From an uncultured Clostridia bacterium (GTDB lineage Bacteria; Bacillota; Clostridia; TANB77; CAG-508): 64,000 nt of DNA. The stretch is taken from assembly GCA_944393375.1 (NCBI GenBank), contig CALXZX010000002.1:15487-79486 (forward strand), in the 5' to 3' direction. The notes below the pieces were generated by a model, which had not been told where the DNA came from, ran no database searches, and saw only the letters and a list, made by a program, of their open reading frames with translations. Positions 5,662 through 64,000 of this stretch are shown piece after piece (the stretch's first letter is position 1; every line of letters starts with the position of its first letter). The position numbers were made by a program, and so were the translations under genes.

Positions 5662-5753
5662 AAAAAGGGAAATTGGGGACAGACTCATTTTTCCCTTTTT
5701 TTACATCTCAATTTAAAAAGGGAAAAATGAGTCTGTCCCCAATTTCCCTTTTT
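5662..5753. terminator. Long perfect palindrome between convergent galE and crp/fnr genes (bidirectional terminator, REP-like element)
   Basis: The arm aaagggaaattggggacagactcatttttccc (within 5662-5695) is the exact reverse complement of gggaaaaatgagtctgtccccaatttcccttt (within 5720-5753). A/T runs lie on both outer sides. Confidence 0.75.
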
Positions 5754-11662: not shown

Positions 11663-11765
11663 TTGTCATGCTCCCATCTCTATAAAATTTATATTTGCAT
11701 TATAGCACAACAAAGAAAAAAGATAAAGTTTTCTGAATTTAAAACAATAAAAATGAAAAAATCCC

Positions 11766-11960
11766 TAGAGTTTCTTACTCTAAGAATAATTTATATAAAG
11801 ATAATATCAATAAAGTAGTTATATGTCAATAAAAATATTCTTTATTTGTACAACAAATTTTTATATAAAAATGAAAGTTTTTATAATTATAATCTAAAAC
11901 TATAAATCTATAAATGACAATAGTTAGAAAGATATTATCAATTTCTTAGAGTAAGAAACT
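11766..11960. promoter_or_regulatory. Putative invertible promoter (inverton 1) upstream of surface-protein paralog 1
   Basis: IR-L 11769-11786 (agtttcttactctaagaa) is the exact reverse complement of IR-R 11943-11960 (ttcttagagtaagaaact), 18 bp. The enclosed 156 bp carries TTGACA (11829-11824), 17 nt, TATTAT (11806-11801) on the minus strand, facing away from the gene at 12019. Confidence 0.7.
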
Positions 11961-12018
11961 AAAAGAAAATTAAAAATAGTTTCAAAACAAAAGAAAATGC
12001 AGAAAAGAGGGATAAAAA

Positions 12019-13494
12019 ATGAAAAAACACATACAAAAAAGTAAAATGAAAAATCAAAAAGGAATTACATTATTAGTATTAGTTATTACTATAATAATTT
12101 TATTAATCCTAGCAGGAATTACCATAAGTGCGTTAACAGGAGACAATGGAATTATAGAAAATGCAGGAAAGGCAAAAGAAGAAACAGAAATAGCCAATGA
12201 AAAAGAGATAGTAGAAAAGGCAACCGTACAAGCAATGGGGAATAATAAGTATGGAAATATAGAAGAAGATGAATTGCAAAGTGAGTTAGATAAAGAAACA
12301 GGAGAAGGGAAAACAGATGCAACAGATATAGGAAATGAACTTGAAGTAGTATTTATTGATAGTAATCGATATTATGTAGTTGATAAAGATGGAAATGTAG
12401 GAGAAGCACAAGAGATTATAAAAGATAAAAATCCAGGAGATATTACAATAGGAAAAGATGGAGAAACATTAGATGGAAGTGAAGAACATCCATATGAGAT
12501 AAGGTGTATAGAAGATTTAATAGAATGGTCACAACATTATACTAAATATCAGAATAGTAATATTGTCTTATGTAAAGACTTGAATTTTAAATCTTCACTA
12601 TCTTATGCAGATAGTAAAAGTATGGAATATGGAGACATCAATCAAGATAATACAACAGACAGTCTGATTGAGGAGATGCAAAAAGGAATAGGTTTCACAC
12701 CAATAGCAAATTTTTCAGGGATATTTAATGGGAATCATTTTGGAATTCAGAATATTTATATAGTTAATCATGAAAGTGTAGGACTATTTAGTCAAATAGA
12801 TGGAGCTATAATAAGTGATCTAGATATAAGTGGATATATTGAAAGTACAGAAATTACTAGCATTGCTGGTGGAGCTGGTAGCATAGCAGGAAATATAAGT
12901 GAAGGAAGAAATAAAAAAAGTTATATAGAAAATTGTTCAAATAGTGCTACTATAAAAGGTTTTTTAAACCAAAATTATACAGGAATTGGTGGTATAGTAG
13001 GTAAATCTAACGGGGCAGCTAATATAGTAAATTGTAGTAATAGAGGTACAATAATAAGTGAAGTAGGTACAAAAGTTTATATGGGAGAAAACGCAATAGG
13101 TACTGCGGGAATTTTAGGATATACAAGAGGTAATAAGGCTGATGTCAATATATATAACAGTTATAATATAGGAAATGTTTCATCAAATAAATCATCTTGT
13201 GGAATAATGGGAGGTATATGGGCAGAAGGTTCAATTAATATAGAAAATTGTTTTAATATAGGAGAAGCAAAAATAGGGATTTGTAAAAGTGCAAATAGTA
13301 GTAACAGTATTTACTATTTGGATAGTGCAAGTAGCACAGGAGGAATAACAAATGCAGTTCTTATTACAAAAAATGAATTGTGTAGTGAAGAATTTATTAA
13401 TTTATTAAATGATTATATAGAATCAGGAGAAGATTATAAAACTAAATGGAAAAAATGGAAATTAGGAGAAGAAGGATATCCTATAATTGAATAA
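12019..13494 (+). CDS. Surface protein paralog 1: pilin-like N-terminal hydrophobic module plus GLUG-type beta-helix repeats
   Basis: N-terminus KGITLLVLVITIIILLILAGITISALTGDNGII resembles a class III (prepilin) signal but lacks Glu+5. A conserved ~160-aa module ends at PYEIRCIEDL. The C-terminal half has repeated GG(I/L)(V/I)G...N(C/S)xN.G motifs. Confidence 0.85.
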   Translation: MKKHIQKSKMKNQKGITLLVLVITIIILLILAGITISALTGDNGIIENAGKAKEETEIANEKEIVEKATVQAMGNNKYGNIEEDELQSELDKETGEGKTDATDIGNELEVVFIDSNRYYVVDKDGNVGEAQEIIKDKNPGDITIGKDGETLDGSEEHPYEIRCIEDLIEWSQHYTKYQNSNIVLCKDLNFKSSLSYADSKSMEYGDINQDNTTDSLIEEMQKGIGFTPIANFSGIFNGNHFGIQNIYIVNHESVGLFSQIDGAIISDLDISGYIESTEITSIAGGAGSIAGNISEGRNKKSYIENCSNSATIKGFLNQNYTGIGGIVGKSNGAANIVNCSNRGTIISEVGTKVYMGENAIGTAGILGYTRGNKADVNIYNSYNIGNVSSNKSSCGIMGGIWAEGSINIENCFNIGEAKIGICKSANSSNSIYYLDSASSTGGITNAVLITKNELCSEEFINLLNDYIESGEDYKTKWKKWKLGEEGYPIIE

Positions 13495-16176: not shown

Positions 16177-16182
16177 TATCAA

Positions 16183-16250
16183 ATTAGGGACGTTTCTGTT
16201 TGGACATTTTTTAAATTATTTAAAAATGTCCAAACAGAAACGTCCCTAAT
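16183..16250. terminator. Perfect 29-bp-arm palindrome between convergent yfcE-like and mgtA genes (bidirectional terminator, REP-like element)
   Basis: attagggacgtttctgtttggacattttt (16183-16211) is the exact reverse complement of 16222-16250. Confidence 0.8.
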
Positions 16251-16261
16251 TTTCCTTTTGG

Positions 16262-47314: not shown

Positions 47315-47360
47315 AAATAGCTTAAGAATATTTTATTTATTGAATATTCTTAAGCTATTT
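47315..47360. terminator. Bidirectional hairpin between convergent spoIIIAH and the XRE gene
   Basis: Perfect 18-bp arms aaatagcttaagaatatt / aatattcttaagctattt. The right arm overlaps the 3' end of the XRE gene. Confidence 0.7.
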
Positions 47361-47556
47361 TATTGGCCATTATTCTTATGTATTCGCCTAATTCTTCATC
47401 CGTTAATTCTAATTCTAAAATTAGGTTTTTCAGAACATCTCGTCTAGGTAAATCTTCTTCATTATCAATTCGTATATATTGTCTTAAGCTAATTCCTAGT
47501 ATTTCAGACATTTTTTCTTGTGTATATTTTTTTGCCTTTCTTTTTTCTTTTATCAT
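47350..47556 (-). CDS. XRE family helix-turn-helix transcriptional regulator (68 aa)
   Basis: The YTQEKMSEILGISLRQYIRIDN HTH is typical of Cro/C1-type regulators. Confidence 0.8.
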   Translation of the reverse strand: MIKEKRKAKKYTQEKMSEILGISLRQYIRIDNEEDLPRRDVLKNLILELELTDEELGEYIRIMANKIA

Positions 47557-47630: not shown

Positions 47631-47679
47631 GCATAAAAATATATAAAATATTTTTTAATCATTTAAAGATAAAAAAGCC

Positions 47680-47874
47680 TTAGAGTTTTTTACTCTAAGA
47701 AAGATTAATATAAGTTAATCATAACAATAAAATAGTGAAATGTCAATAAAATTTAATTGAATAAAATAGTGAATGTTTTAAGGAGAAATAATAAAAATTC
47801 AAAAAATGAAATAGAAGAAAATAAAGTAATATTAATACTTATGGAATTTTCATAATTTCTTAGAGTAAAAAAAT
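47680..47874. promoter_or_regulatory. Putative invertible promoter (inverton 2) upstream of the BspA-LRR paralog
   Basis: IR-L 47686-47702 (ttttttactctaagaaa) is the exact reverse complement of IR-R 47856-47872 (tttcttagagtaaaaaa), 17 bp. The segment carries TTGACA (47746-47741), 17 nt, TATGAT (47723-47718) on the minus strand, facing away from the gene at 47899. Confidence 0.7.
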
Positions 47875-47898: not shown

Positions 47899-50010
47899 AT
47901 GAAAACTAAAGAAAATAGAAAAAATAGGGGAATTACTTTAATTGCCCTAGTTATCACCATTATAGTGTTACTAATTTTAGCAGGAATCACAATAGGAGCG
48001 ATAACAGGAGATAATGGTATTATACAAAATGCATTAAGTGCAAAAGAACAAACAGAAATTGCAAATGAAAGAGAAATTGTAGAAGAAGCAACTGTTCAAG
48101 CCATGGGAAAGAATAAAAGAGGAAACATTGTAAAAGATGAATTGCAAGAAGAATTAGATAAAATAACAGGAGAAGGAAAAACCATTGTAACAGAAGATAA
48201 AGAAGAACTAGGATATTTTGTAAAGTTTGTAGACAGTGGAAGAATCTATAAAGTTAGTATAGATGGAGATGTACAATATTTAGGAAAAGAAAATGAATTA
48301 ATCACACAAGCAGATATTATAGCAAATCCAGAAAGTAATACAACAGCAGAGCTAATACAACAAGTAGATTTAACAGTAAAAACACCAATTGAAATAGAAG
48401 GAGCAGAGTATTCATTAGTATATGCATGGAACCAAGATAAAGAAAATGCACCAGAAGATACAAAATTCTTAGAAACAAACTTAATAGGAGAAGGAAGAAT
48501 CAGAACGACAACGGTATATAGTAGTGATACAGTAGGAGGAGACTATTACTTGTGGGTAAGAATTGTGGTAGGAGATATAGAAAGAGAAGCATGTTTTGGA
48601 CCATATGCAATAAAAGATTATACAACTTTAGTATCTGTTGATTGGAATGGTGGTTTAGCAGAAGGAGGATTTTTAGGAAATAGTGAAGTACCAAGAGGAA
48701 AAATACAAAATATTGATATAATTACATCATTAGAGGGACATAGTGTAGATGATGAAAAAACCTGGGATGTATCAGATGGAAATAAAGGAATGTATTTAGC
48801 ATGGTATGAAGTAAATGAGAATGGATATTATGATGTAACGATTGCAGGAAATGGAGGAATTGTTGCAAATAGTTATTCAACATATTTATTTAAAAATATA
48901 GGTTCTGGTGTGGAAAATCAAGAAGTAACAATAACAGGGTTAGAATATTTAGACACAGGGTTAGTAACGAATATGTATTCAATGTTTGAAAATTGTAAAG
49001 CAGAAGAAATAGATGTGAGCCAATTTAATACAGAAAAAGTTACATCCATGTCATCAATGTTTTCAAGTTGTAGTAATATAGAAAGTTTGAATGTAAGTAA
49101 TTTTAAAACAGAGAATGTAACAAGTATGTATCAGATGTTTGATGGATGTAGTAGTTTAACAGAATTAGATTTAACGAATTTTAATACAAGTAATGTAACG
49201 AATATGGAAGGTATGTTTTTGAACTGTAAAGCAACAAGTATATACTTAAGTGGTTTTGATACAAAAAATGTAGCAAATATGCTAAATATGTTTAATGGTT
49301 GTTCTGTAACAAGCCTGGATGTAAGCCATTTTAACACAAGTAATGTAACAAATATGCAGGGAATGTTTGCTAATTGTAAAGTACAGAGTTTAGATTTAAC
49401 GAGTTTTAATACAAGTAAAGTAACAACTATGTGGACTATGTTTCAAGGGTGTCAAGCAACTAATATTGATGTGAGTAGTTTTGACACGAGTAGTGTATTA
49501 TATATGAGAGAAATGTTTGCATCGTGTAGAGCAACAGATTTAGATTTATCTAATTTTGATACAAGCAATGTAACAAATATGTATAGAATGTTTATGAGTT
49601 GTAGAGCAACAAATATAGATGTAAGCAATTTTGACATAAGTAACGTAACATATACTATGGATGGAATGTTCCGAGATTGTTCAAATTTAGTAAAATTAGA
49701 TGCAAGTAGTTTTACAATGCCCAAAACAACATCTGTAGAGTGGATGTTTGGAGGTTGTCAAAAAATAGAACAAATAGACCTTAAAAATTTTGAGGTAAAG
49801 GAAGGAACCAATATTAATCAGATGTTTTACAACTGCCGAAGTTTAGAAAAATTAGATATTAGAAAATTTGATATAACAAAGACAACTGGATATAGTAATT
49901 ACTGGATATATCCTGTACCAACAACATGTAGTATTATTGTAAATCAAAGCATGAAAGATTGGTTTACAGAAAACCTTCCAAATTATACAAATGTAACAAT
50001 AGGAAATTAG
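47899..50010 (+). CDS. Surface protein paralog 2: pilin-like N-terminal module plus BspA/DUF285-type leucine-rich repeats
   Basis: N-terminus RGITLIALVITIIVLLILAGITIGAITGDNGII is homologous to the other five paralogs. The C-terminal half has about 12 tandem ~24-aa repeats (F(N/D)TSNVTNMxxMFxxCxxxxLDLSN). Confidence 0.88.
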   Translation: MKTKENRKNRGITLIALVITIIVLLILAGITIGAITGDNGIIQNALSAKEQTEIANEREIVEEATVQAMGKNKRGNIVKDELQEELDKITGEGKTIVTEDKEELGYFVKFVDSGRIYKVSIDGDVQYLGKENELITQADIIANPESNTTAELIQQVDLTVKTPIEIEGAEYSLVYAWNQDKENAPEDTKFLETNLIGEGRIRTTTVYSSDTVGGDYYLWVRIVVGDIEREACFGPYAIKDYTTLVSVDWNGGLAEGGFLGNSEVPRGKIQNIDIITSLEGHSVDDEKTWDVSDGNKGMYLAWYEVNENGYYDVTIAGNGGIVANSYSTYLFKNIGSGVENQEVTITGLEYLDTGLVTNMYSMFENCKAEEIDVSQFNTEKVTSMSSMFSSCSNIESLNVSNFKTENVTSMYQMFDGCSSLTELDLTNFNTSNVTNMEGMFLNCKATSIYLSGFDTKNVANMLNMFNGCSVTSLDVSHFNTSNVTNMQGMFANCKVQSLDLTSFNTSKVTTMWTMFQGCQATNIDVSSFDTSSVLYMREMFASCRATDLDLSNFDTSNVTNMYRMFMSCRATNIDVSNFDISNVTYTMDGMFRDCSNLVKLDASSFTMPKTTSVEWMFGGCQKIEQIDLKNFEVKEGTNINQMFYNCRSLEKLDIRKFDITKTTGYSNYWIYPVPTTCSIIVNQSMKDWFTENLPNYTNVTIGN

Positions 50011-55439: not shown

Positions 55440-55460
55440 TAAAAAACAACTAAAAAAAGT

Positions 55461-55654
55461 CCTAGAGTTAAGTACTCTAGAACTTTTTTAATACCTTGAT
55501 TATACCAATAAATATAATAGATATCAACAAAAAATAGAAAATAAAATGACAAAATTTATTAATTGGAAAATAGAAAATAAAAAAGAACAAAGACAGTAAA
55601 AAGGCTAAATAATGCATAAAATCCAACTTTCTATATTTCTTAGAGTACTTAACT
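55461..55654. promoter_or_regulatory. Putative invertible promoter (inverton 3)
   Basis: IR-L core 55466-55479 (agttaagtactcta) is the exact reverse complement of IR-R 55641-55654 (tagagtacttaact), 14 bp. The flanking GAA/TTC extends it with a 1-nt bulge. The segment carries TTGATA (55527-55522), 17 nt, TATAAT (55504-55499) on the minus strand. Confidence 0.65.
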
Positions 55655-55683
55655 AAAAGAAAGTATAGAAGGGAGAAGATAAA

Positions 55684-57219
55684 ATGCAAAAGATAAGGAA
55701 AGAACAGGGAATTACATTATTAGCATTAGTAATTACTATTATTATATTATTAATCTTAGCAGGAATCACAATAAGTGCTATTACAGGGGACAATGGAATC
55801 ATAGGAAATGCAGGACAAGCAAAAGAGGAAACAGAGATTGCCAATGAAAAAGAAATTATAGAAAAAGCGACTGTACAAGCAATGGGAAATAATAAATATG
55901 GGAACATAGAAGAAAGTGAATTACAAGAACAATTAGATAAAGAAACAGGAGAAGAAAAAACAGAAGTATTAAATGTCGAAGATGAATTTGAAGTTGTATT
56001 TCATGAAAGTAACAGATATTATACAGTAGATAAAGATGGAAATGTACAAGGTGCCTATGAAATCATAGAAGATAAATATCCGGGAGATATTACTGTTGGA
56101 AAAGATGGAGAAACATTATATGGAAGTGAAGAAAAACCATATGAAATCTGGTGTATAGAAGATTTAATGGAATGGTCTAAAAACTATAGTCAATATATGA
56201 ACGCATATATAAAGTTATGTACTAATTTAAACTTTAAATCAGAATTATCATATGCAAATAGTGAAACAAAAGACTATGGAGATGTGAATCAAGATGGAAA
56301 TACAGATAGTTTAATAAAAGAATTACAAAGTAGAGAAGGATTTAAAGCAATACAACAATTTTCAGGTAATTTTGATGGTGATGAAAATATAATCAGTAAT
56401 TTATATATTTCTAAACAGGACAATGCAGGTCTCATCTTATCTTTAAATAATGCTAATTTCAAGAATATTACAATAAAAGGAGAAATATATAGCCAAAGTA
56501 ATAATGCCGGAATTATTTCTCAAGGAGGAAATAGTCAAATTGAAAATATTATAAGTGATGTTAAGATATATGGTGGCGTAGCAGCAGGAATAATAGGAAG
56601 ATGTACAGCTCAATTAAACATAAAGGATTGCGTGAACTTGGGAAATATAGAATCAACGTCAGCAGTAGGTGGAGTTTGTGGAGACCAGTTTACAGGAGAA
56701 ATGTTAAATTGTATAAATGAAGGAACAATAAAATCTAGCGCAAGTGGAAATTATGGTGTAGGAGGATTATGTGGAAATACTGGCAGTAATAATACAGAAA
56801 GTACACAAATAAAAAATTGTATAAATAGTGGAACAATTATATATGATGGAAATAAAAGTGTATGGTATTTTGGTGGAGCAGGTGGAATAACAGGATTAAA
56901 TCGACAAACATTGATTATACAAAACTGTGTGAATACAGGAAAAATACAATCTACCTCTTATGTAGGTGCTATATGTGGAATGGATCTTATATATTGGCAA
57001 AGCCAAGAAACATATGAATTAACCAATTCATTCATGTTAGATAATGTGGAGAGAGTAACAGGAAGTAATAATGCAGAAACAGAAATTACAGTATTTAAAA
57101 TCGAAGATGTTCTAGATGTAGCTACAAGTTTAAATCAATATATAAATAATAATAAATTAACAGAACAAGGTTGGAAATTATGGAAAATAGAAAATGATAA
57201 TAAATTAACATTAGAATAA
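55684..57219 (+). CDS. Surface protein paralog 3: pilin-like N-terminal module plus GLUG-type beta-helix repeats
   Basis: GGGAGAAG RBS. MQKIRKEQGITLLALVITIIILLILAGITISAITGDNGIIGNAG start. Constant module runs to PYEIWCIEDL (55684-56166). C-terminal GG(V/L)CG/AGGITG repeats. Confidence 0.88.
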   Translation: MQKIRKEQGITLLALVITIIILLILAGITISAITGDNGIIGNAGQAKEETEIANEKEIIEKATVQAMGNNKYGNIEESELQEQLDKETGEEKTEVLNVEDEFEVVFHESNRYYTVDKDGNVQGAYEIIEDKYPGDITVGKDGETLYGSEEKPYEIWCIEDLMEWSKNYSQYMNAYIKLCTNLNFKSELSYANSETKDYGDVNQDGNTDSLIKELQSREGFKAIQQFSGNFDGDENIISNLYISKQDNAGLILSLNNANFKNITIKGEIYSQSNNAGIISQGGNSQIENIISDVKIYGGVAAGIIGRCTAQLNIKDCVNLGNIESTSAVGGVCGDQFTGEMLNCINEGTIKSSASGNYGVGGLCGNTGSNNTESTQIKNCINSGTIIYDGNKSVWYFGGAGGITGLNRQTLIIQNCVNTGKIQSTSYVGAICGMDLIYWQSQETYELTNSFMLDNVERVTGSNNAETEITVFKIEDVLDVATSLNQYINNNKLTEQGWKLWKIENDNKLTLE

Positions 57220-57242
57220 AATATATAAAAAATAAAAATAAA

Positions 57243-57445
57243 TTCATTGAGTTAGATACTCAATGAATTTTTTACTAAAAAGATTATACCATAATTGTAA
57301 AGAAAATCAAGCATTTAAAAAGATATTTAATATAATAATTAGTAATTAAAAAAGTAATAAAATAAAATGAAAAGGTAGTTAAAAATGCACATATTTTCAT
57401 AAAAAAAGTCCTTTTTAATTTTCATTAAGTATCTAACTTAATGAA
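57243..57445. promoter_or_regulatory. Putative invertible promoter (inverton 4)
   Basis: The reverse complement of IR-L 57243-57267 (ttcattgagttagatactcaatgaa) matches IR-R 57421-57445 (ttcattaagtatctaacttaatgaa) at 23/25 positions. The loop sequences ttagata and tatctaa are mutual reverse complements. The segment carries TTGATT (57310-57305), 16 nt, TATAAT (57288-57283) on the minus strand. Confidence 0.7.
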
Positions 57446-57464
57446 AAAGAAAGGGGCAAGAAAA

Positions 57465-59066
57465 ATGCAAAAGATAAGGAAAGAACAGGGAATTACACTA
57501 TTAGCATTAGTTATAACCATCATTGTGTTATTAATCTTAGCAGGAATCACAATAAGTGCGATAACAGGAGATAATGGAATCATAGGAAATGCAGGTCAAG
57601 CAAAAGAAGAAACAGAGATTGCCAATGAAAAAGAAATTGTAGAGAAAGCAACTGTACAAGCAATGGGAAATAATAAATATGGGAACATAGAAGAAAGTGA
57701 ATTACAAGAACAGCTAAATAAGGAAACAGAGGAAGGAAAAACAGAAGTATCAGATGTCGAAGATGAATTTGAAGTTGTATTTCATGAAAGTAATAGATAT
57801 TATACAGTAGATAAAGATGGAAATGTACAAGGTGCCTATGAAATCATAGAAGACAAATATCCAGGAGATATCACAGTTGGAAAAGATGGAAATACATTAG
57901 ATGGAAGTGAAGAAAAACCGTATGAGATTTGGTGTATAGAAGATTTATGTGCATTTTCAAACGAAGTAAATAAAGGAACAACATTTTGGAGCAAATATGT
58001 AAAATTAATGAGAAATTTAAATTTTAATTCAAATCTTTCTTATGTAAACGGAAACATATCTGTAGATGGGAATATTCAAAGTTGTCAATCAATCGAGGAA
58101 TTAAAGAAGTTATTAACAGAAAATGAAGGATTTTATCCTATTGGAAATTCATATTCATCAACAGCTGCAATTTTTAGGGGAATTTTTGATGGAAATAATA
58201 AGACTATAAAAAAAATATATATTAATAGACCCAATAATGTGGTAGGATTATTCGGAACAACATCCAATGATACCGATAATAATATTATTATTAAAAATTT
58301 ATCTATTTCTGGAAATATGACCGGAAGTACTGTTGGTAGTATATTTGCTGATGTTAGAACTTATGATAGGGATAATAAAGATTCTTTTATAAAAATTGAA
58401 AATTGCACAAGTGACATAAATATAGAAGGAGATGTGACAGGGGGATTTATTGGAATTAATAATGCTTCTTCTACAGGAAAATTGATTATTGCCAATTGTA
58501 TAAATAATGGAACAATAAATGGCAAAAGTTATGTTGGTGGCATTTTAGGATATAATTATAATAATACTAAAATAATTAACTGTTATAATTCAGGAAACAT
58601 AGAAGGAGAGTCGGATGTAGGAGGAATTGTTGGACATGATGAAAGGCAATCTAATATAATAAATACATATAATTTAGGAAATGTGACATCTAATTCGAAT
58701 GCTGGAGGAATAATAGGCTGGTCAGGATGGGCAGAAAAAAGTATAGAAAATTGTTATAATATGGGAAGAATATCAGGAAGTACTGTAGGTGGAATTATTG
58801 GAGGATTAAATATAAGTAATGAATTGCTAACTACTCAAAATTGTTATTATTTAAATAAAAATATTTCAAAAGGAACTGGAAGTTGGAATGGTGGAGGAGA
58901 ATCTCAAGAAGATATTAATGGTATTTCTGATACTGAAATGAAATCAACTGAAATATTAGAAAAACTCAATAATTATGTAACAGAAAATATAACAATAGAA
59001 GGTGTTGTGTTGAAAAAATGGATAGTAGGAGAGGATGGATATCCAATTTTTGAAAAAAATATATAA
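57465..59066 (+). CDS. Surface protein paralog 4: pilin-like N-terminal module plus GLUG-type beta-helix repeats
   Basis: The ATG at 57465 (after AAAGGGG) aligns with the MQKIRKEQGITLLAL start of paralogs 3 and 6. The track start at 57441 lies inside IR-R. The C-terminal ~110 aa are shared with paralog 5. Confidence 0.88.
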   Translation: MQKIRKEQGITLLALVITIIVLLILAGITISAITGDNGIIGNAGQAKEETEIANEKEIVEKATVQAMGNNKYGNIEESELQEQLNKETEEGKTEVSDVEDEFEVVFHESNRYYTVDKDGNVQGAYEIIEDKYPGDITVGKDGNTLDGSEEKPYEIWCIEDLCAFSNEVNKGTTFWSKYVKLMRNLNFNSNLSYVNGNISVDGNIQSCQSIEELKKLLTENEGFYPIGNSYSSTAAIFRGIFDGNNKTIKKIYINRPNNVVGLFGTTSNDTDNNIIIKNLSISGNMTGSTVGSIFADVRTYDRDNKDSFIKIENCTSDINIEGDVTGGFIGINNASSTGKLIIANCINNGTINGKSYVGGILGYNYNNTKIINCYNSGNIEGESDVGGIVGHDERQSNIINTYNLGNVTSNSNAGGIIGWSGWAEKSIENCYNMGRISGSTVGGIIGGLNISNELLTTQNCYYLNKNISKGTGSWNGGGESQEDINGISDTEMKSTEILEKLNNYVTENITIEGVVLKKWIVGEDGYPIFEKNI

Positions 59067-59074
59067 AAAAATAT

Positions 59075-59276
59075 CGTTAAGTTAATTACTTAACGATTGA
59101 AAACTAAATATATAATACCAATAAAAAATAGTAAAGTCAATAGATAAGGAGAGATATACAAGAAAAGAAAAATAGAATAGAAAACAACAAAAAATGAAAA
59201 GCAGAAATGATTTGTTTTATAGTAAAATCAAATCATTCCTGCTTTTTTATATATACCTTAAGTAATTAACTAAAAG
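59075..59276. promoter_or_regulatory. Putative invertible promoter (inverton 5)
   Basis: The reverse complement of IR-L 59075-59095 (cgttaagttaattacttaacg) matches IR-R 59256-59276 (ccttaagtaattaactaaaag) at 18/21, with a perfect 14-bp core. The segment carries TTGACT (59140-59135), 17 nt, TATTAT (59117-59112) on the minus strand. An internal plus-strand terminator lies at 59201-59248. Confidence 0.7.
59201..59248 (+). terminator. Intrinsic terminator inside inverton 5, just upstream of IR-R
   Basis: gcagaaatgattt / aaatcattcctgc, a 13-bp stem with one mismatch, followed by TTTTTT. Confidence 0.65.
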
Positions 59277-59331
59277 AAAATGAAAAAATGATGAAATACA
59301 TGAGAAAATAAAAAGAAAAGAGGTATAACGT

Positions 59332-60987
59332 ATGAGATTCAAAAGAGAAAACAAACGAGAAGCAGGAATTACATTATTAGCATTAGTTATAACCATCATT
59401 GTATTATTAATATTAGCAGGAATTATAATAAGTGCTATTACAGGGGACAATGGAATCATAGGAAATGCAGGTCAAGCAAAAGAAGAAACAGAGATTGCAA
59501 ATGAAAAAGAAATTGTAGAGAAAGCAACTGTACAAGCAATGGGAAATAATAAATATGGGAACATAGAAGAAAGTGAATTACAAGAACAATTAGATAAAGA
59601 AACGGATACTGGAAAAACAGAAGTATCAGATGTGGAAGATGAATTTGAAGTTGTATTTCATGAAAGTAACAGATATTACACAGTAGATAAAGATGGAAAT
59701 GTAGATGGTGCCTATGAAATTATAGAAGATAAACATCCAGGAGATATTACGCTTGGAAAAGATGGAGAAACATTAGATGGAAGTGAAGAAAAACCATATG
59801 AGATTTGGTGTATAGAAGACTTAGTAGCTTTTTCGAATATGGTAAATGGAGAAGGGATTAGGTTAGAAAATGGCGAGCCCAAACAAATAAGAAGTACAAA
59901 TAGTTTTTCTTTAAAATATGTTGTTTTAAAAACAAATCTTAATTTTAAATCAAAATTATCATATCAAAATAGTGAAAGAACGGACTTTGGAGATATTAAT
60001 GGAAATGAAAATGATGGAAATACATTGATGAATGAAATGACAACAGAAAATGGATTTAAACCAATAGGAATGGTTGAAAATACAGGCTTCGGTGGTGTTT
60101 TTGATGGTCAAAATTATTGGATAAAAGAAATGTATATCCATAGAGAAGATAGAGGAGTAGGTCTATTTACTAAAATAGACAATGTAAATAGTGTAGTTAT
60201 AAAAAATTTGAGAATATCAGGAGAAATGGCAGGAAACTCTGGCGGAGGTGTAGTAGGGACGGTATCTTTGGTTTTTAGAGGGAACAATATAATGATACAA
60301 AATTGTATAAATTATGTAAATATTAAAACTACGGTTTCGGCAGGAGGAATTGTTGGCAGTCGTGGATCTGGTGGATCAGATAAGACTTTAATGATTGCTG
60401 ATTGTATAAACTATGGAGAAATTGAAGGACAAAATTTCTCGGGTGGAATTATTGGACTAGCATATGAAACTACAAAAATTATTAATTGCTGTAATATAGG
60501 AAAAATAGTAAGTAAAGATAAAAATGAAGCATATGGAGGAGCGGGTGGAATTATTGGAACTAGTATGTTTAAAGTTAATATTATTAATGCATATAATTTT
60601 GGAAATGTAGAAGCTGAAAAAAATGCAGGAGGTATTTTAGGATATTCTTATTGGGCAGAAAAGAGTATAGAAAATTGTTATAATATAGGGAAAATATCAG
60701 GAGATACTGTAGGTGGAATTATAGGAACATTGACACTAAGTAATGAATTGTTAGCAACACAAAACTGTTACTATTTAAACACAAATATTTCAAAAGGATT
60801 TGGTAGTTGGAATTCTAGTGCAGAAGCATTAGAAGATGTACAAGGTCTTACAGATACAGAAATGAAATCAACGGAAGTATTAGAGAAACTCAATAATTAT
60901 GTAACAGAGAATATAACAATGGAAGGTATTGTATTGAAAAAATGGATAGTAGGAGAGGATGGATATCCTGGATTTGATAATAACTAA
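59332..60987 (+). CDS. Surface protein paralog 5: pilin-like N-terminal module plus GLUG-type beta-helix repeats
   Basis: AGAGG RBS. MRFKRENKREAGITLLALVITIIVLLILAGIIISAITGDNGII start. Constant module to PYEIWCIEDL (ends 59823). GG(I/V)(I/V)G...NC(Y/I)N.G repeats. Confidence 0.88.
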   Translation: MRFKRENKREAGITLLALVITIIVLLILAGIIISAITGDNGIIGNAGQAKEETEIANEKEIVEKATVQAMGNNKYGNIEESELQEQLDKETDTGKTEVSDVEDEFEVVFHESNRYYTVDKDGNVDGAYEIIEDKHPGDITLGKDGETLDGSEEKPYEIWCIEDLVAFSNMVNGEGIRLENGEPKQIRSTNSFSLKYVVLKTNLNFKSKLSYQNSERTDFGDINGNENDGNTLMNEMTTENGFKPIGMVENTGFGGVFDGQNYWIKEMYIHREDRGVGLFTKIDNVNSVVIKNLRISGEMAGNSGGGVVGTVSLVFRGNNIMIQNCINYVNIKTTVSAGGIVGSRGSGGSDKTLMIADCINYGEIEGQNFSGGIIGLAYETTKIINCCNIGKIVSKDKNEAYGGAGGIIGTSMFKVNIINAYNFGNVEAEKNAGGILGYSYWAEKSIENCYNIGKISGDTVGGIIGTLTLSNELLATQNCYYLNTNISKGFGSWNSSAEALEDVQGLTDTEMKSTEVLEKLNNYVTENITMEGIVLKKWIVGEDGYPGFDNN

Positions 60988-61484: not shown

Positions 61485-62369
61485 ATGAGTAATTTAAACA
61501 AATTAAAAGAAGTAGATATGCTACCATTATCAAATGATTATGTATTCAAAAGAATATTTGGAAAAGGTGGAAATGAAAGAATATTAAAAAGCTTACTAGA
61601 AGCAATTTTAAAAATTAGTATACAAAAAATAGAAGTAAAAAATCCGGAAATACCAAAAGAAGCAATTGATGAAAAATTAAGCATCTTAGATATCAAAGCA
61701 GAAATAAATGAAAATACCATTATAGATGTTGAATTACAAGTAGGAAATACAACGGCCTTAGAAAGAAGATTAGTAGTATATAATGCAAAACTAATAGCAG
61801 GAGAAATAAAAGTATCAGAAAAATATCAAAAGGCAAAAGATACAATTGTGATATGTATTATAAATGATAATGTTGTAAGACGAAATGCATATTTAAGTTT
61901 AGCCATGTTAAAATATGAAAAAACAGAAGAAATCAGATATGTCAATATGGGATATGGAAAAGAAGAAGAATATTTAACAGACATGGTAAAATACTATATC
62001 ATAGAATTACCAAAGTTTAAGAAAAAGAAACCAAAGGTAGCAGATTTACTAGAAAAATGGTTATATGTGATTGGGGGAGATAGAAAAATGATGGAAGAAT
62101 GCAAAAAAGAAAATGAAGAAATCAAAGAAGCAGTAGAACAATTAACACAAATGAGTGCAGATGAATACGAAAGAGAACTATATGAAATTAGGGAAAGAAG
62201 TAGATTAACTTATAACACAGAAATGTATGAAGCAAGAAGGAAAGGATTAGAAGAAGGGAAGACTGAAGAAAGAAAAGAAATTGCTAAGAAAATGAAAGAA
62301 AAAGGTACAGATATTACATATATAATCGAGATAACAGGTTTAACTGAAGAAGAAATTAAAGCATTGTAA
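61485..62369 (+). CDS. Rpn / PD-(D/E)XK (PDDEXK_2, TIGR01784 'putative transposase or invertase') family nuclease
   Basis: N-terminal L..SNDYVFKRIFG motif. D...E.Q nuclease core (LSILDIKAEINENTIIDVELQ). Charged helical C-terminus ending in an HTH-like KGTDITYIIEITGLTEEEIKAL, as is typical of this family. Confidence 0.75.
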   Translation: MSNLNKLKEVDMLPLSNDYVFKRIFGKGGNERILKSLLEAILKISIQKIEVKNPEIPKEAIDEKLSILDIKAEINENTIIDVELQVGNTTALERRLVVYNAKLIAGEIKVSEKYQKAKDTIVICIINDNVVRRNAYLSLAMLKYEKTEEIRYVNMGYGKEEEYLTDMVKYYIIELPKFKKKKPKVADLLEKWLYVIGGDRKMMEECKKENEEIKEAVEQLTQMSADEYERELYEIRERSRLTYNTEMYEARRKGLEEGKTEERKEIAKKMKEKGTDITYIIEITGLTEEEIKAL

Positions 62370-62418
62370 TTTATTTATAAGTATCATTAAAGAAATAATT
62401 TTTCAGAACATAAAAAAT

Positions 62419-62618
62419 CGTTAAGTCAGATACTTAACGATATAAAACTAAAAATATAATATCAATAAAAAATAGTAAAGTCAATAGATAGAAAGAATGA
62501 AAATAAAGAATTAAAATTCATAAAGAAAATAAAAAACAAAAAGTAGAAAAAACTTGTAATAGTGTTACAATAAGTAATTTCTGCTTTTTTCTTTTTACCT
62601 TAAGTATCTGACTTAATG
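62419..62618. promoter_or_regulatory. Putative invertible promoter (inverton 6)
   Basis: The reverse complement of IR-L 62419-62439 (cgttaagtcagatacttaacg) matches IR-R 62598-62618 (ccttaagtatctgacttaatg) at 19/21, with a perfect 17-bp core. The segment carries TTGACT (62484-62479), 17 nt, TATTAT (62461-62456) on the minus strand. An internal terminator-like hairpin plus T-run lies at 62542-62590. Confidence 0.7.
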
Positions 62619-62640
62619 AAAAAGGAAAGGAGTAGGAAAA

Positions 62641-64000
62641 ATGCAAAAGATAAGGAAAGAACAAGGAATTACACTATTAGCATTAGTTATAACCATCATT
62701 GTATTATTAATATTAGCAGGAATTACAATAAGTGCGATAACAGGAGATAATGGAATCATAGGAAATGCAGGTAAAGCAAAAGAAGAAACAGAGATTGCAA
62801 ATGAAAAAGAAATTGTAGAGAAAGCAACTGTACAAGTAATGGGAAATAATAAATATGGGAACATAGAAGAAAGTGAATTACAAGAACAATTAGATAAAGA
62901 AACGGATACTGGAAAAACAGAAGTATCAGATGTCGGAGATGAATTTGAAGTTGTATTTCATGAAAGTAATCGATACTATACAGTAGATAAAGATGGAAAT
63001 GTAGAAGGTGCTTATGAAATTGTAGAAGATGAATATCCAGGAGATATTACAGTTGGAAAAGATGGAGAGACATTAGATGGAAGCGAAGGAAAACCATATG
63101 AGATTTGGTGTATAGAAGATTTAGTAGAATGGTCACAAAATTATAGAAACTATCAAAATTCTTATATAGAATTGAAAAGAACATTAAATTTTAAATCAAG
63201 ATTGTCTTATATAAACGGAAAAATGTTAAATTGCAATTCAATAGAAGAATTAAGAAATTTATTAACAAATACTTCTGGAAGTGGATTTACACCAATTACT
63301 AATTTTTATGGTACTTTTGATGGGAAGAACTTTGAAATACAAAATATTTATGAAAATGTATCAGGAAAAGCAGGTTTTTTTGCAGATGCTGCTGGGACAA
63401 TAAAAAATTTAAAAATATCGGGAAATATTATTTCAAATGATGGATATGCGGGTGGAATTGTAAGTAATTTAGGAGAAACATTAAACATTAGTAACTGCAT
63501 TAATTACTGTAACGTTACTGCAAATGCAGAAATACATACCAATCCTGGTAATGTTGATGTTCGTGGAACTGCAGGAGGAATTGTAGGAAAATGTGTAGGA
63601 AATGTTATCATTAAGGATTGTGCAAATGAAGGAAATATATATGGAACAAATGAAACGGGAGGAATAGTAGGATTTCAATATGTTTCTAATATCACAATTT
63701 TAAATTGTTATAATGATGGAATGATAAATGGGGAAAGTGATACAGGAGGAATCATTGGTAGAACATTGGCATCAACTGTGCAAATATATAATTGTTATAA
63801 CATAGGAAATATTTCTGGAAGTGTTACTGGAGGATTAATGGGAAATAGAGGTTCTAATGATAAAATAGAGATAAAAAATTGTTATAATTATTCAGAAATT
63901 AAAGGAAGTAAATATCAAGGAGAAATTATTGGATTTAATTGGGCATATGATACAGAAACATCTCCTACAATAGAAAATGTATTTTATACAAATCAAACAA
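62641..64000 (+). CDS. Surface protein paralog 6 (partial, runs off the window end): pilin-like N-terminal module plus GLUG-type beta-helix repeats
   Basis: ATG at 62641 after AAAGGAG. MQKIRKEQGITLLALVITIIVLLILAGITISAITGDNGII start. The frame stays open to base 64000. It is absent from the ORF track only because no stop falls within the window. Confidence 0.85.
   Translation, partial: MQKIRKEQGITLLALVITIIVLLILAGITISAITGDNGIIGNAGKAKEETEIANEKEIVEKATVQVMGNNKYGNIEESELQEQLDKETDTGKTEVSDVGDEFEVVFHESNRYYTVDKDGNVEGAYEIVEDEYPGDITVGKDGETLDGSEGKPYEIWCIEDLVEWSQNYRNYQNSYIELKRTLNFKSRLSYINGKMLNCNSIEELRNLLTNTSGSGFTPITNFYGTFDGKNFEIQNIYENVSGKAGFFADAAGTIKNLKISGNIISNDGYAGGIVSNLGETLNISNCINYCNVTANAEIHTNPGNVDVRGTAGGIVGKCVGNVIIKDCANEGNIYGTNETGGIVGFQYVSNITILNCYNDGMINGESDTGGIIGRTLASTVQIYNCYNIGNISGSVTGGLMGNRGSNDKIEIKNCYNYSEIKGSKYQGEIIGFNWAYDTETSPTIENVFYTNQT

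Follow-up and report, generated by a model that had tools for sequence, protein, structure and literature searches.

Why should two palindromes that are inverted copies of each other stand in front of a bacterial gene for a surface protein? The question is raised by the DNA analysed here, a 64,000-nt stretch of a contig from an uncultured Clostridia bacterium (GenBank CALXZX010000002.1), which we call the window and to which all coordinates refer unless a contig or locus is named. In it, two repeats, IR-L and IR-R, together spanning 57243-57445, precede the gene at 57465-59066. We hold, with high confidence, that this element is a promoter inverton, the ON/OFF switch of that gene. Indeed, the features by which promoter invertons are known appear to be present: short inverted repeats around a small intergenic segment, both orientations in nature, and an internal promoter pointing one way. 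The host lineage comprises uncultured, spore-forming, low-G+C Clostridia, with metagenome-assembled genomes (MAGs) from wild-bird, chicken and Hadza gut samples.

The two repeats and their inversion

The repeats, the segment between them and the flanking genes are as follows.

57243-57267: IR-L, the left recombination site, TTCATTGAGTTAGATACTCAATGAA; a 25-nt palindrome of the form 9+7+9, with two inverted half-sites of 9 bp each (TTCATTGAG and CTCAATGAA) around the asymmetric centre TTAGATA
57250-57260: the family core within IR-L, AGTTAGATACT
57268-57420: the invertible segment between the repeats, 153 nt; about 178 bp would flip, the crossover being within the cores
57421-57445: IR-R, the right recombination site, TTCATTAAGTATCTAACTTAATGAA, made up of TTCATTAAG, TATCTAA and CTTAATGAA
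57428-57438: the core within IR-R, AGTATCTAACT
57283-57310, minus strand: predicted sigma-70-type promoter with an extended -10 element, TTGATT-16 nt-TG-n-TATAAT; 10 of 12 matches plus the TG
57450-57456, plus strand: Shine-Dalgarno sequence AAAGGGG
57465-57467, plus strand: start codon ATG, giving the N-terminus MQKIRKEQGITLL; assigned from paralogue N-termini and the orthologue call on contig L001
57465-59066, plus strand: controlled gene for a surface protein of 533 aa with a pilin-like hydrophobic N-terminus (GITLLALVITIIVLLILAG) and a GLUG motif (Pfam Glug, E 1.9e-05)
55684-57219, plus strand: upstream paralogue, 511 aa, found on five public contigs

The two 25-nt arms lie 153 nt apart and are complementary at 23 of 25 positions (92%). 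Each is at the same time a perfect 9+7+9 palindrome, and the two differences (G/A and C/T) fall at mirror positions. The centres, TTAGATA and TATCTAA, are mutual reverse complements over 7 nt. On these points our re-reading of the sequence agrees with the first-pass annotation of the locus, which had described arms with 23/25 complementarity that stay foldable despite their mirror differences, and had taken the reverse-complementary asymmetric loops as the mark of a true inverted-repeat relationship. When the 25-mer was searched for with up to three mismatches, the positions of IR-L and IR-R were the only ones found in the 64-kb window, and 100 dinucleotide-preserving shuffles of the sequence gave no match. 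The best explanation for the palindromic arms is that each site consists of a pair of inverted recombinase half-sites enclosing an asymmetric spacer for the crossover, as in lox, FRT and dif sites. Such a layout makes the repeats palindromic and their loops mutually complementary, so that RNA folding is unnecessary to account for the palindromy. The perfect palindrome of IR-R is kept in the orthologues L006 and L017 and is unusual in the family of switches described below.

The promoter inside the segment faces IR-L, away from gene 57465-59066, and transcription is predicted to start at about 57276. Because the promoter faces away from the gene, the switch in the window is read as OFF.

Inversion of segment 57243-57445 is real, and natural variants confirm it. 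An exact look-up of the protein encoded by the upstream gene 55684-57219 in public assemblies gave five contigs. On one of them, L002 (ENA ERZ28614198), the segment is flipped and carries the hybrid site TTCATTGAG-TTAGATA-CTTAATGAA. Past the upstream gene this contig reads AAATTCATTGAGTTAGATACTTAATGAA followed by AATTAAAAAGGACTTTTTTTATGAAAATATGTGCATT (the junction is also read as TTCATTGAGTTAGATACTTAATGAA followed by AATTAAAAAGGACTTTTTTTATGAAAATATGTGCATT). Here the outer half of IR-L is joined through the spacer to the inner half of IR-R, and the sequence then continues as the reverse complement of window 57384-57420, without a mismatch. The G..T hybrid matched a prediction made before the contigs were inspected, and it places the crossover inside AGTTAGATACT. 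On inversion both sites turn into G.T hybrids, as L002 shows. Another contig, L005, stops within the spacer, a typical assembly break at a heterogeneous site. The non-flipped orientation is found on L001, L003, L004 and L099, and in the window itself.

A sister switch at 55.46 kb provides a second case. It is fully flipped (ON) within the 14-kb contig of L001, where BLAST aligns a block of 189 bp in reverse orientation with 100% identity; in L018, the orthologous MAG locus, the same hybrid sites occur together with an ON-oriented promoter. The hybrids of both switches (57.25 and 55.46 kb) confine the crossover to an 11-bp core, AGT-N5-ACT. The first-pass annotation had called the element an inverton and had suggested that crossover points be mapped by sequencing flipped molecules; the public contig L002 supplies the flipped copy, and the public hybrids bound the crossover to the core. 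An exact-site scan of a metagenome collection gave no matches.

One may ask whether the two arms are instead independent Rho-independent terminators, or palindromes like the repetitive extragenic palindromic (REP) elements, which resemble each other by chance and do not invert, the flip being an assembly artefact. Both arms do fold well alone, IR-L scores as a terminator, and the flipped contig L002 stops after 85 nt. However, the L002 junction, with its G..T hybrid and reverse-complemented interior, is absent from the OFF arrangement, and the flip of the sister switch is complete inside its contig. In addition, metagenome assemblers usually use k-mers longer than 25 bp, and a repeat of this length should thus not give rise to such a junction by misassembly. 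Since the hybrid junctions hold sequence absent from the other orientation and the repeat is shorter than the usual k-mers, misassembly is not credible.

A family of switches with matched spacers

Species-representative genomes were searched with the conserved N-terminal domain, which gave 78 loci in about 15 MAGs, with many paralogues per genome. A switch was called where two AGT-N5-ACT cores, separated by 60-400 nt, had complementary spacers and flanks that resembled each other. By this rule, the window and 83 related loci hold 87 switches, 66 of them non-redundant. Negative-control loci were provided by a scan of the metagenome collection with the candidate recombinase introduced below, which returned relatives of at most 41% identity; 785 kb of these unrelated loci contained no AGT-N5-ACT pairs and no switches. 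AGT-N5-ACT pairs about 178 nt apart offer a simple rule to find and score switches in metagenomes. A literature search found no description of this switch family.

The members are strikingly uniform in layout. Core-to-core spacing ranges from 142 to 194 nt and is mostly 177-182 nt. The half-site consensus is TTTCTTAGAGT / ACTCTAAGAAA (9-11 bp), the right outer half being usually ACTAAAAGAAA, and five variable bases lie inside the invariant AGT..ACT, which permits a 7-bp overlap of the form T-N5-A. The promoter, TTGACT-17-TGnTATTAT, is the best-conserved block of the cassette and is present in nearly all 87 switches, its -10 element ending 20-24 nt from the core it faces. In the consensus assemblies, 62 of the 66 non-redundant switches are OFF and four are ON. 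Loci from one MAG contain up to about 20 switches, and the 64-kb window at least six.

The spacers, by comparison, are diverse, with 37 distinct ones in the family; partner spacers are nevertheless exactly complementary in 67 of 69 real pairs in which spacer identity was not imposed. Moreover, partners change in concert: in the L006 orthologue of the present switch (93.6% identical), TAGAT/ATCTA has become CAGAT/ATCTG. Matching of this extent despite 37 spacers, together with right sites that lack U-tracts (see below), counts further against a chance resemblance of independent terminators, and we attach practically no credence to that explanation. The idea that each genome uses a given spacer strictly once was also tried, and is ruled out by the loci of MAG BRZ_IE__bin33, among which CAGAT, TAAGT and TAAAT occur twice each.

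Six similar switches are present in the window, at about 11.77, 47.68, 55.46, 57.25, 59.08 and 62.42 kb, the one at 57.25 kb being the fourth. All six are OFF (the one at 47.7 kb as judged by eye). Immediately downstream of each comes a gene whose product has a hydrophobic, pilin-like N-terminus (GITLLALVITIIVLLILAG) with a weak N_methyl match. The C-terminal parts of the controlled proteins are variable, with DUF285/PARCEL repeats, a GLUG motif, or no match. The five sister switches are the following.

11761-11968: cores at 11769 and 11950, spacer TTCTT; OFF; upstream of the pilin-like gene 12019-13494
47678-47874: left palindrome CCTTAGAGTTTTTTACTCTAAG, right core degenerate (AGTAAAAAAAT, ACT changed to AAT); upstream of the DUF285/PARCEL-repeat gene 47899-50010
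55458-55662: cores AGTTAAGTACT at 55466 and AGTACTTAACT at 55644; OFF in the window
59072-59279: cores at 59080 and 59261, spacer TAATT; OFF; upstream of gene 59332-60987
62416-62621: cores at 62424 and 62603, spacer CAGAT; OFF; upstream of the gene starting at 62641

In the switch at 47678-47874, the promoter points leftward (OFF) by eye and the spacer, T5/A5, looks symmetric; given its mutated right core, this switch may be inversion-defective. Just upstream of it lies a small divergent gene of the XRE helix-turn-helix type (47350-47556, minus strand). A gene of the Rpn family, annotated as PD-(D/E)XK 'recombination-promoting nuclease/putative transposase' (61485-62369), sits between two family genes, and the left site of the 62.42-kb switch begins 49 nt past its stop codon. 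We considered this reading frame as an invertase and rejected it, as it is of the Rpn/PD-(D/E)XK nuclease type and not a known invertase.

Predicted transcription in the two orientations

If the cassette carries a promoter in either orientation, what keeps the OFF-state transcript from running on into the upstream gene, and what lets the ON-state transcript through? The flanks of the two sites differ. AAAAATAAA stands before IR-L and TTTTTT after it, whereas IR-R runs into AAAAAG and has no U-tract. The predicted folding energy of IR-L is -14.3 kcal/mol on the plus strand and -14.8 on the minus strand (z about -5.3 against shuffles), and that of IR-R in its OFF-state context is -21.4 kcal/mol (z -5.6 against shuffles). 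IR-L was flagged as terminator-like on the minus strand, with 13 pairs and the tail ATTTTTATTT.

We then looked at the family. Statistics were compiled for a 13-pair stem, with shuffled partners and partners slid by 1-3 columns as controls.

Left site, OFF: standard-pair cells 83.5% (shuffled 71.9%); covariation score 0.291 (shuffled 0.112; slid at most 0.117)
Right site: standard-pair cells 77.0% (shuffled 74.0%); covariation score 0.131 (shuffled 0.096; slid up to 0.128)

In the left stem, 114 cells are changed on both sides and several pair types occur at seven positions, and ON-state hybrids built in silico pair near the permuted level. A U-tract (at least six T in 10 nt) follows the left stem on the minus strand in 92% of the switches and on the plus strand in 50%; after the right site, on the plus strand, it is found in none of the 66. 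The left covariation together with the U-tracts leads us to the view that the left site has been selected as a terminator. The sequences support a left site that would serve as terminator for the OFF promoter always, and for the upstream gene in about half of the switches, including 57243-57445; they likewise support a right site that would be built for read-through.

These data bear on several statements of the first-pass annotation. Its description of IR-L as terminator-like and of IR-R as devoid of a U-tract carries over to the family at large. Its further proposal, that compensatory changes keep the arms foldable, stands for the left site and fails for the right one, whose covariation score barely differs from that of slid partners. 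It was silent on the direction of the promoter. In the OFF state, halting the transcript of that promoter would be the foremost task of IR-L.

The strong covariation of the left stem, and the fact that both arms of the 57243-57445 switch are perfect palindromes, could also be taken to mean that the recombinase acts on folded single-stranded DNA hairpins, in the manner of integron attC sites or the ends of IS200/IS605 elements. We consider this very improbable. Covariation is absent at the right sites and in the ON-state hybrids, which means that foldability is not needed at both partners. Furthermore, the left stem is coupled to U-tracts, the signature of a terminator, and conserved half-sites with exchange in a matched spacer fit double-stranded core sites.

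We therefore return to the promoter inverton and propose the following cycle. Recombinase half-sites would flank the asymmetric 5-nt spacer in AGT-N5-ACT, with exchange taking place within the 11-bp core and requiring matching spacers; because the sites are inverted, recombination would flip the cassette of about 178 bp. In the OFF state, the transcript of the leftward promoter would reach IR-L after about 10 nt, where a 12-13-bp hairpin and its U-tract would stop it and spare the upstream gene 55684-57219 antisense transcription. On the plus strand, the U-tract of IR-L probably ends the transcript of the upstream gene too. Inversion would place the -10 element at a distance of about 22 nt from IR-R and the start of the transcript about 14 nt ahead of the core. 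The RNA would then pass a weaker hybrid hairpin, with a G.U pair and without a U-tract, to reach the Shine-Dalgarno sequence and the ATG at 57465, IR-R becoming part of the 5' untranslated region. The ON-state hybrids, with G.U on the plus strand, have a predicted energy of about -10 kcal/mol; in the OFF state the values are -14 for IR-L and, flanks included, -21 for IR-R. The enzyme would act in trans, encoded outside the window, and would most probably be a tyrosine recombinase.

The first-pass annotation had noted that an ATG at 57441 lies inside IR-R and had placed the conserved start at 57465. We agree. The ATG at 57441 has no Shine-Dalgarno sequence, the one at 57465 has; the N-terminus MQKIRKEQGITLL that follows from 57465 is shared with the paralogue at 55684, and the gene caller starts the L001 orthologue at the equivalent position. 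The 533-aa protein that starts at 57465 is on record, exactly, on contig L099, and a look-up of the 541-aa version starting at 57441 gave no record. Gene annotations that put the start codon within IR-R, as at 57441, are in error.

The leader raised a further possibility. In the OFF arrangement (window 57405-57457), the Shine-Dalgarno sequence is part of a stretch, AAAGAAAGGGGC, with which GUCCUUUUU of the cassette can pair, and this pairing extends the IR-R hairpin to the energy given above. As a feature of the family, orientation-specific sequestering of the Shine-Dalgarno sequence was considered on account of an initial accessibility of 0.44 in OFF versus 0.73 in ON; it was rejected when leaders of equal length gave 0.45 versus 0.41 (p = 0.54). 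No part of the window matched Rfam at gathering score.

A candidate recombinase and comparable systems

Which enzyme would flip the cassettes? A serine recombinase makes a 2-bp staggered cut centred on the dyad, and this needs a centre of even length. In the present sites, the 5-nt spacer has its middle base on the dyad axis, and the centre is of odd length in all 66. We infer that a tyrosine enzyme, with an overlap of 7 bp, suits this anatomy better than a serine enzyme with one of 2 bp. It thus speaks against the view that a true switch is operated by a Hin/Gin/Mpi-type serine invertase cutting at a central 2-bp overlap, a view that can draw on the master serine invertases of Bacteroides (e.g. 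Mpi), which control many promoter inversions (PMC5903667). We also searched 1,751 open reading frames (ORFs) in about 1.06 Mb (the window plus the related loci) by phmmer, with Hin and the XerD-like L030 protein as queries; no serine recombinase was found, a weak negative because these loci are parts of genomes. Tyrosine recombinase genes, on the other hand, adjoin family members in two divergent lineages. Taken together, a serine invertase seems improbable to us, and we go on with a tyrosine enzyme, the identity of which we infer from these sites and neighbours.

The candidate is a tyrosine recombinase of 310 aa with the domains Phage_int_SAM_3 and Phage_integrase. In three MAGs, its gene immediately follows genes of the family.

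L010 11955-12885: candidate recombinase gene
L024 19285-20216: candidate recombinase gene
L052 4105-5035: candidate recombinase gene

In L084-L089, the candidate gene follows a family gene of the GLUG type, whose inverton is also present in L084 and L085, the contigs that reach far enough to show it. In L180, which belongs to a different lineage, a homologue with 61% identity stands immediately before an ON-state switch of like build (AGT-AATTA-ACT, 178 nt), beyond which comes a pilin-like gene.

Public data contain its close homologues (77-92% identical) in two forms, 310 aa long or truncated to 227-244 aa, and both are common. The difference is seen at a poly-T tract at gene offset 671 (L010, L024, L052 and L084-L098): with T9 the reading frame is intact, whereas T10 or T11 ends the protein ahead of the catalytic HxxR motif and Tyr. 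One lineage has both T9 (L090-L092) and T11 (L024). This variation in length suggests that the candidate invertase is controlled by slipped-strand or transcriptional slippage. A two-tier contingency system can tentatively be imagined, although we think it rather less probable than not as a whole: a tyrosine invertase, itself switched by slippage, would flip dozens of private cassettes; the individual 5-nt spacers would act as heterospecific lox-like addresses that prevent cross-recombination; and the left sites would silence the OFF promoters. If this is true, an invertase gene knocked out of frame would leave the surface-protein pattern of the moment fixed.

A second tyrosine recombinase, of 293 aa (L015, L024, L030 and L071), is probably the housekeeping XerD; in L030 it is preceded by a 212-aa membrane ORF, which we tentatively take to be spoIIM. 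We did not choose it as the invertase, which it may nevertheless be.

Two observations concern the surroundings of the candidate gene. First, in L093-L098 a perfect inverted repeat of about 34 bp (GTCAAGTCGGTTTTGCCTGCTAAGCAATATATAA and its complement) was seen by eye about 150-390 nt upstream of the recombinase start (e.g. L093 5750-5900). It encloses about 100-130 bp between murT and the recombinase gene; L091 starts inside it, and no flipped copy was seen. This repeat could be a different invertible element, or merely a long hairpin. Second, the recombinase gene directly follows murT in related genomes (L094 5614-6001), and the syntenic position in the window (11663-12018) has an inverton and the pilin-like gene 12019-13494, with no recombinase. 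This locus has been rearranged between lineages.

Having argued for a promoter inverton served by a tyrosine recombinase, we would note several points that weigh against this reading. First, the switch 57243-57445 is flipped in one public contig, L002, which ends inside the cassette. Second, no recombinase was detected in the window, either by Pfam scans of about 50 ORFs or by phmmer, and the tie between the candidate recombinase and the switches, adjacency in related genomes, is circumstantial. Third, two pairs have mismatched spacers, namely L016 528/706 (CAGAT with ATTTA, two bases) and L022 858/1036 (CAGAT with ATTTG, one base). Either spacer identity is not absolute, or these switches are locked; they may also be products of recombination between different switches. 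Fourth, the terminator scan flagged IR-L on the minus strand alone, half of the T-run on the plus strand can pair with the upstream A-run, and the stem is A+T-rich, with three G-C pairs out of 13. Finally, promoter activity, termination and read-through are all read from the sequence.

How does the switch compare with known ones? In Escherichia coli, the fimS element of type 1 fimbriae is inverted by the tyrosine recombinases FimB and FimE. The likeness lies in a short intergenic promoter cassette of a surface gene with short inverted repeats, flipped site-specifically between ON and OFF. The differences are that fimS is a single switch with 9-bp repeats and recombinases encoded beside it, whereas here there are dozens of switches per genome with shared half-sites and spacers of their own; that the left site here is itself a terminator hairpin; and that no recombinase is nearby in the window. 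The size and layout of fimS are mentioned in PMC5903667.

Small invertible segments are also known from another member of the Clostridia, Clostridioides difficile, where RecV, a tyrosine recombinase encoded elsewhere, acts on several of them upstream of surface and motility genes, and where most of the inverted repeats are mutually unrelated (PMC5903667). The RecV switches (cwpV/Cdi1, flgB/Cdi4 and Cdi2-7) resemble ours in host class and in segment size, a comparison of layout and not of enzyme sequence. The flgB segment is about 150 bp long, similar to the cassette in 57243-57445. In cwpV, an orientation-dependent terminator is combined with a promoter outside the invertible segment. Unlike in C. 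difficile, all sites here share one consensus, the conserved promoter is inside the cassette, which sets it apart from the cwpV type, and the terminator is the recombination site.

With regard to spacers, the nearest parallel is offered by the variants of Cre-lox (lox511, lox2272) and of FRT, in which inverted binding elements surround an asymmetric spacer and partner spacer identity is required, so that sites differing in spacer do not cross-react; recombination between inverted sites there likewise leads to inversion. Those variants are engineered, whereas here 37 natural spacers are found among 66 switches, some of them recurring within a genome. The recurrence would mean that orthogonality is not strict, or that it also depends on the half-sites. 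The family is a natural test case of how spacer identity might keep many sites of one recombinase from cross-reacting.

With regard to scale, Mpi of Bacteroides fragilis is a master recombinase of many scattered promoter inversions, each governing one surface-variation locus and most of them OFF at a given moment, from which a combinatorial diversity of surfaces results (PMC5903667, PMC10403206). Mpi differs in being a serine recombinase, in acting on polysaccharide operons and in belonging to another phylum; the present switches precede single pilin-like genes and have tyrosine-type site anatomy and neighbours. The vsa, vpma and vsp systems of Mycoplasma (PMC2268961) are similar in that a tyrosine (Xer-like) recombinase lies beside a variable multigene family of surface proteins, and DUF285/PARCEL-type repeats are common to Mycoplasma surface proteins and the genes controlled here. 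In Mycoplasma, however, one promoter is moved among silent genes between identical sites, whereas here each gene has a private invertible promoter.

Judged by the defining features that sequence can reveal, the identity of the recombinase apart, it is well supported that the present element would be of the same functional kind as fimS, the Mpi promoters and the RecV switches. What may set it apart are the shared half-sites with partner-matched spacers, the left site as terminator of the OFF promoter, the pilin-like targets, and a candidate invertase that is perhaps controlled by slippage. Each switch would control one gene of a pilin-like family with DUF285/PARCEL or GLUG domains, and a Clostridia gut lineage (bird, chicken and human Hadza) would accordingly vary its surface by promoter inversion on a scale documented mainly for Bacteroides.

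The other content of the window is of the housekeeping kind (a penicillin-binding protein, cysS, nrdDG, murT, spoIIIA, accBCDA and a fabI-like gene). Between convergent genes, at 5662-5753 and 16181-16252, we further observed perfect or near-perfect palindromes of 39 and 34 nt with a core of the GGGAC...GTCCC type, which are probably strong bidirectional terminators, separate from the switches.

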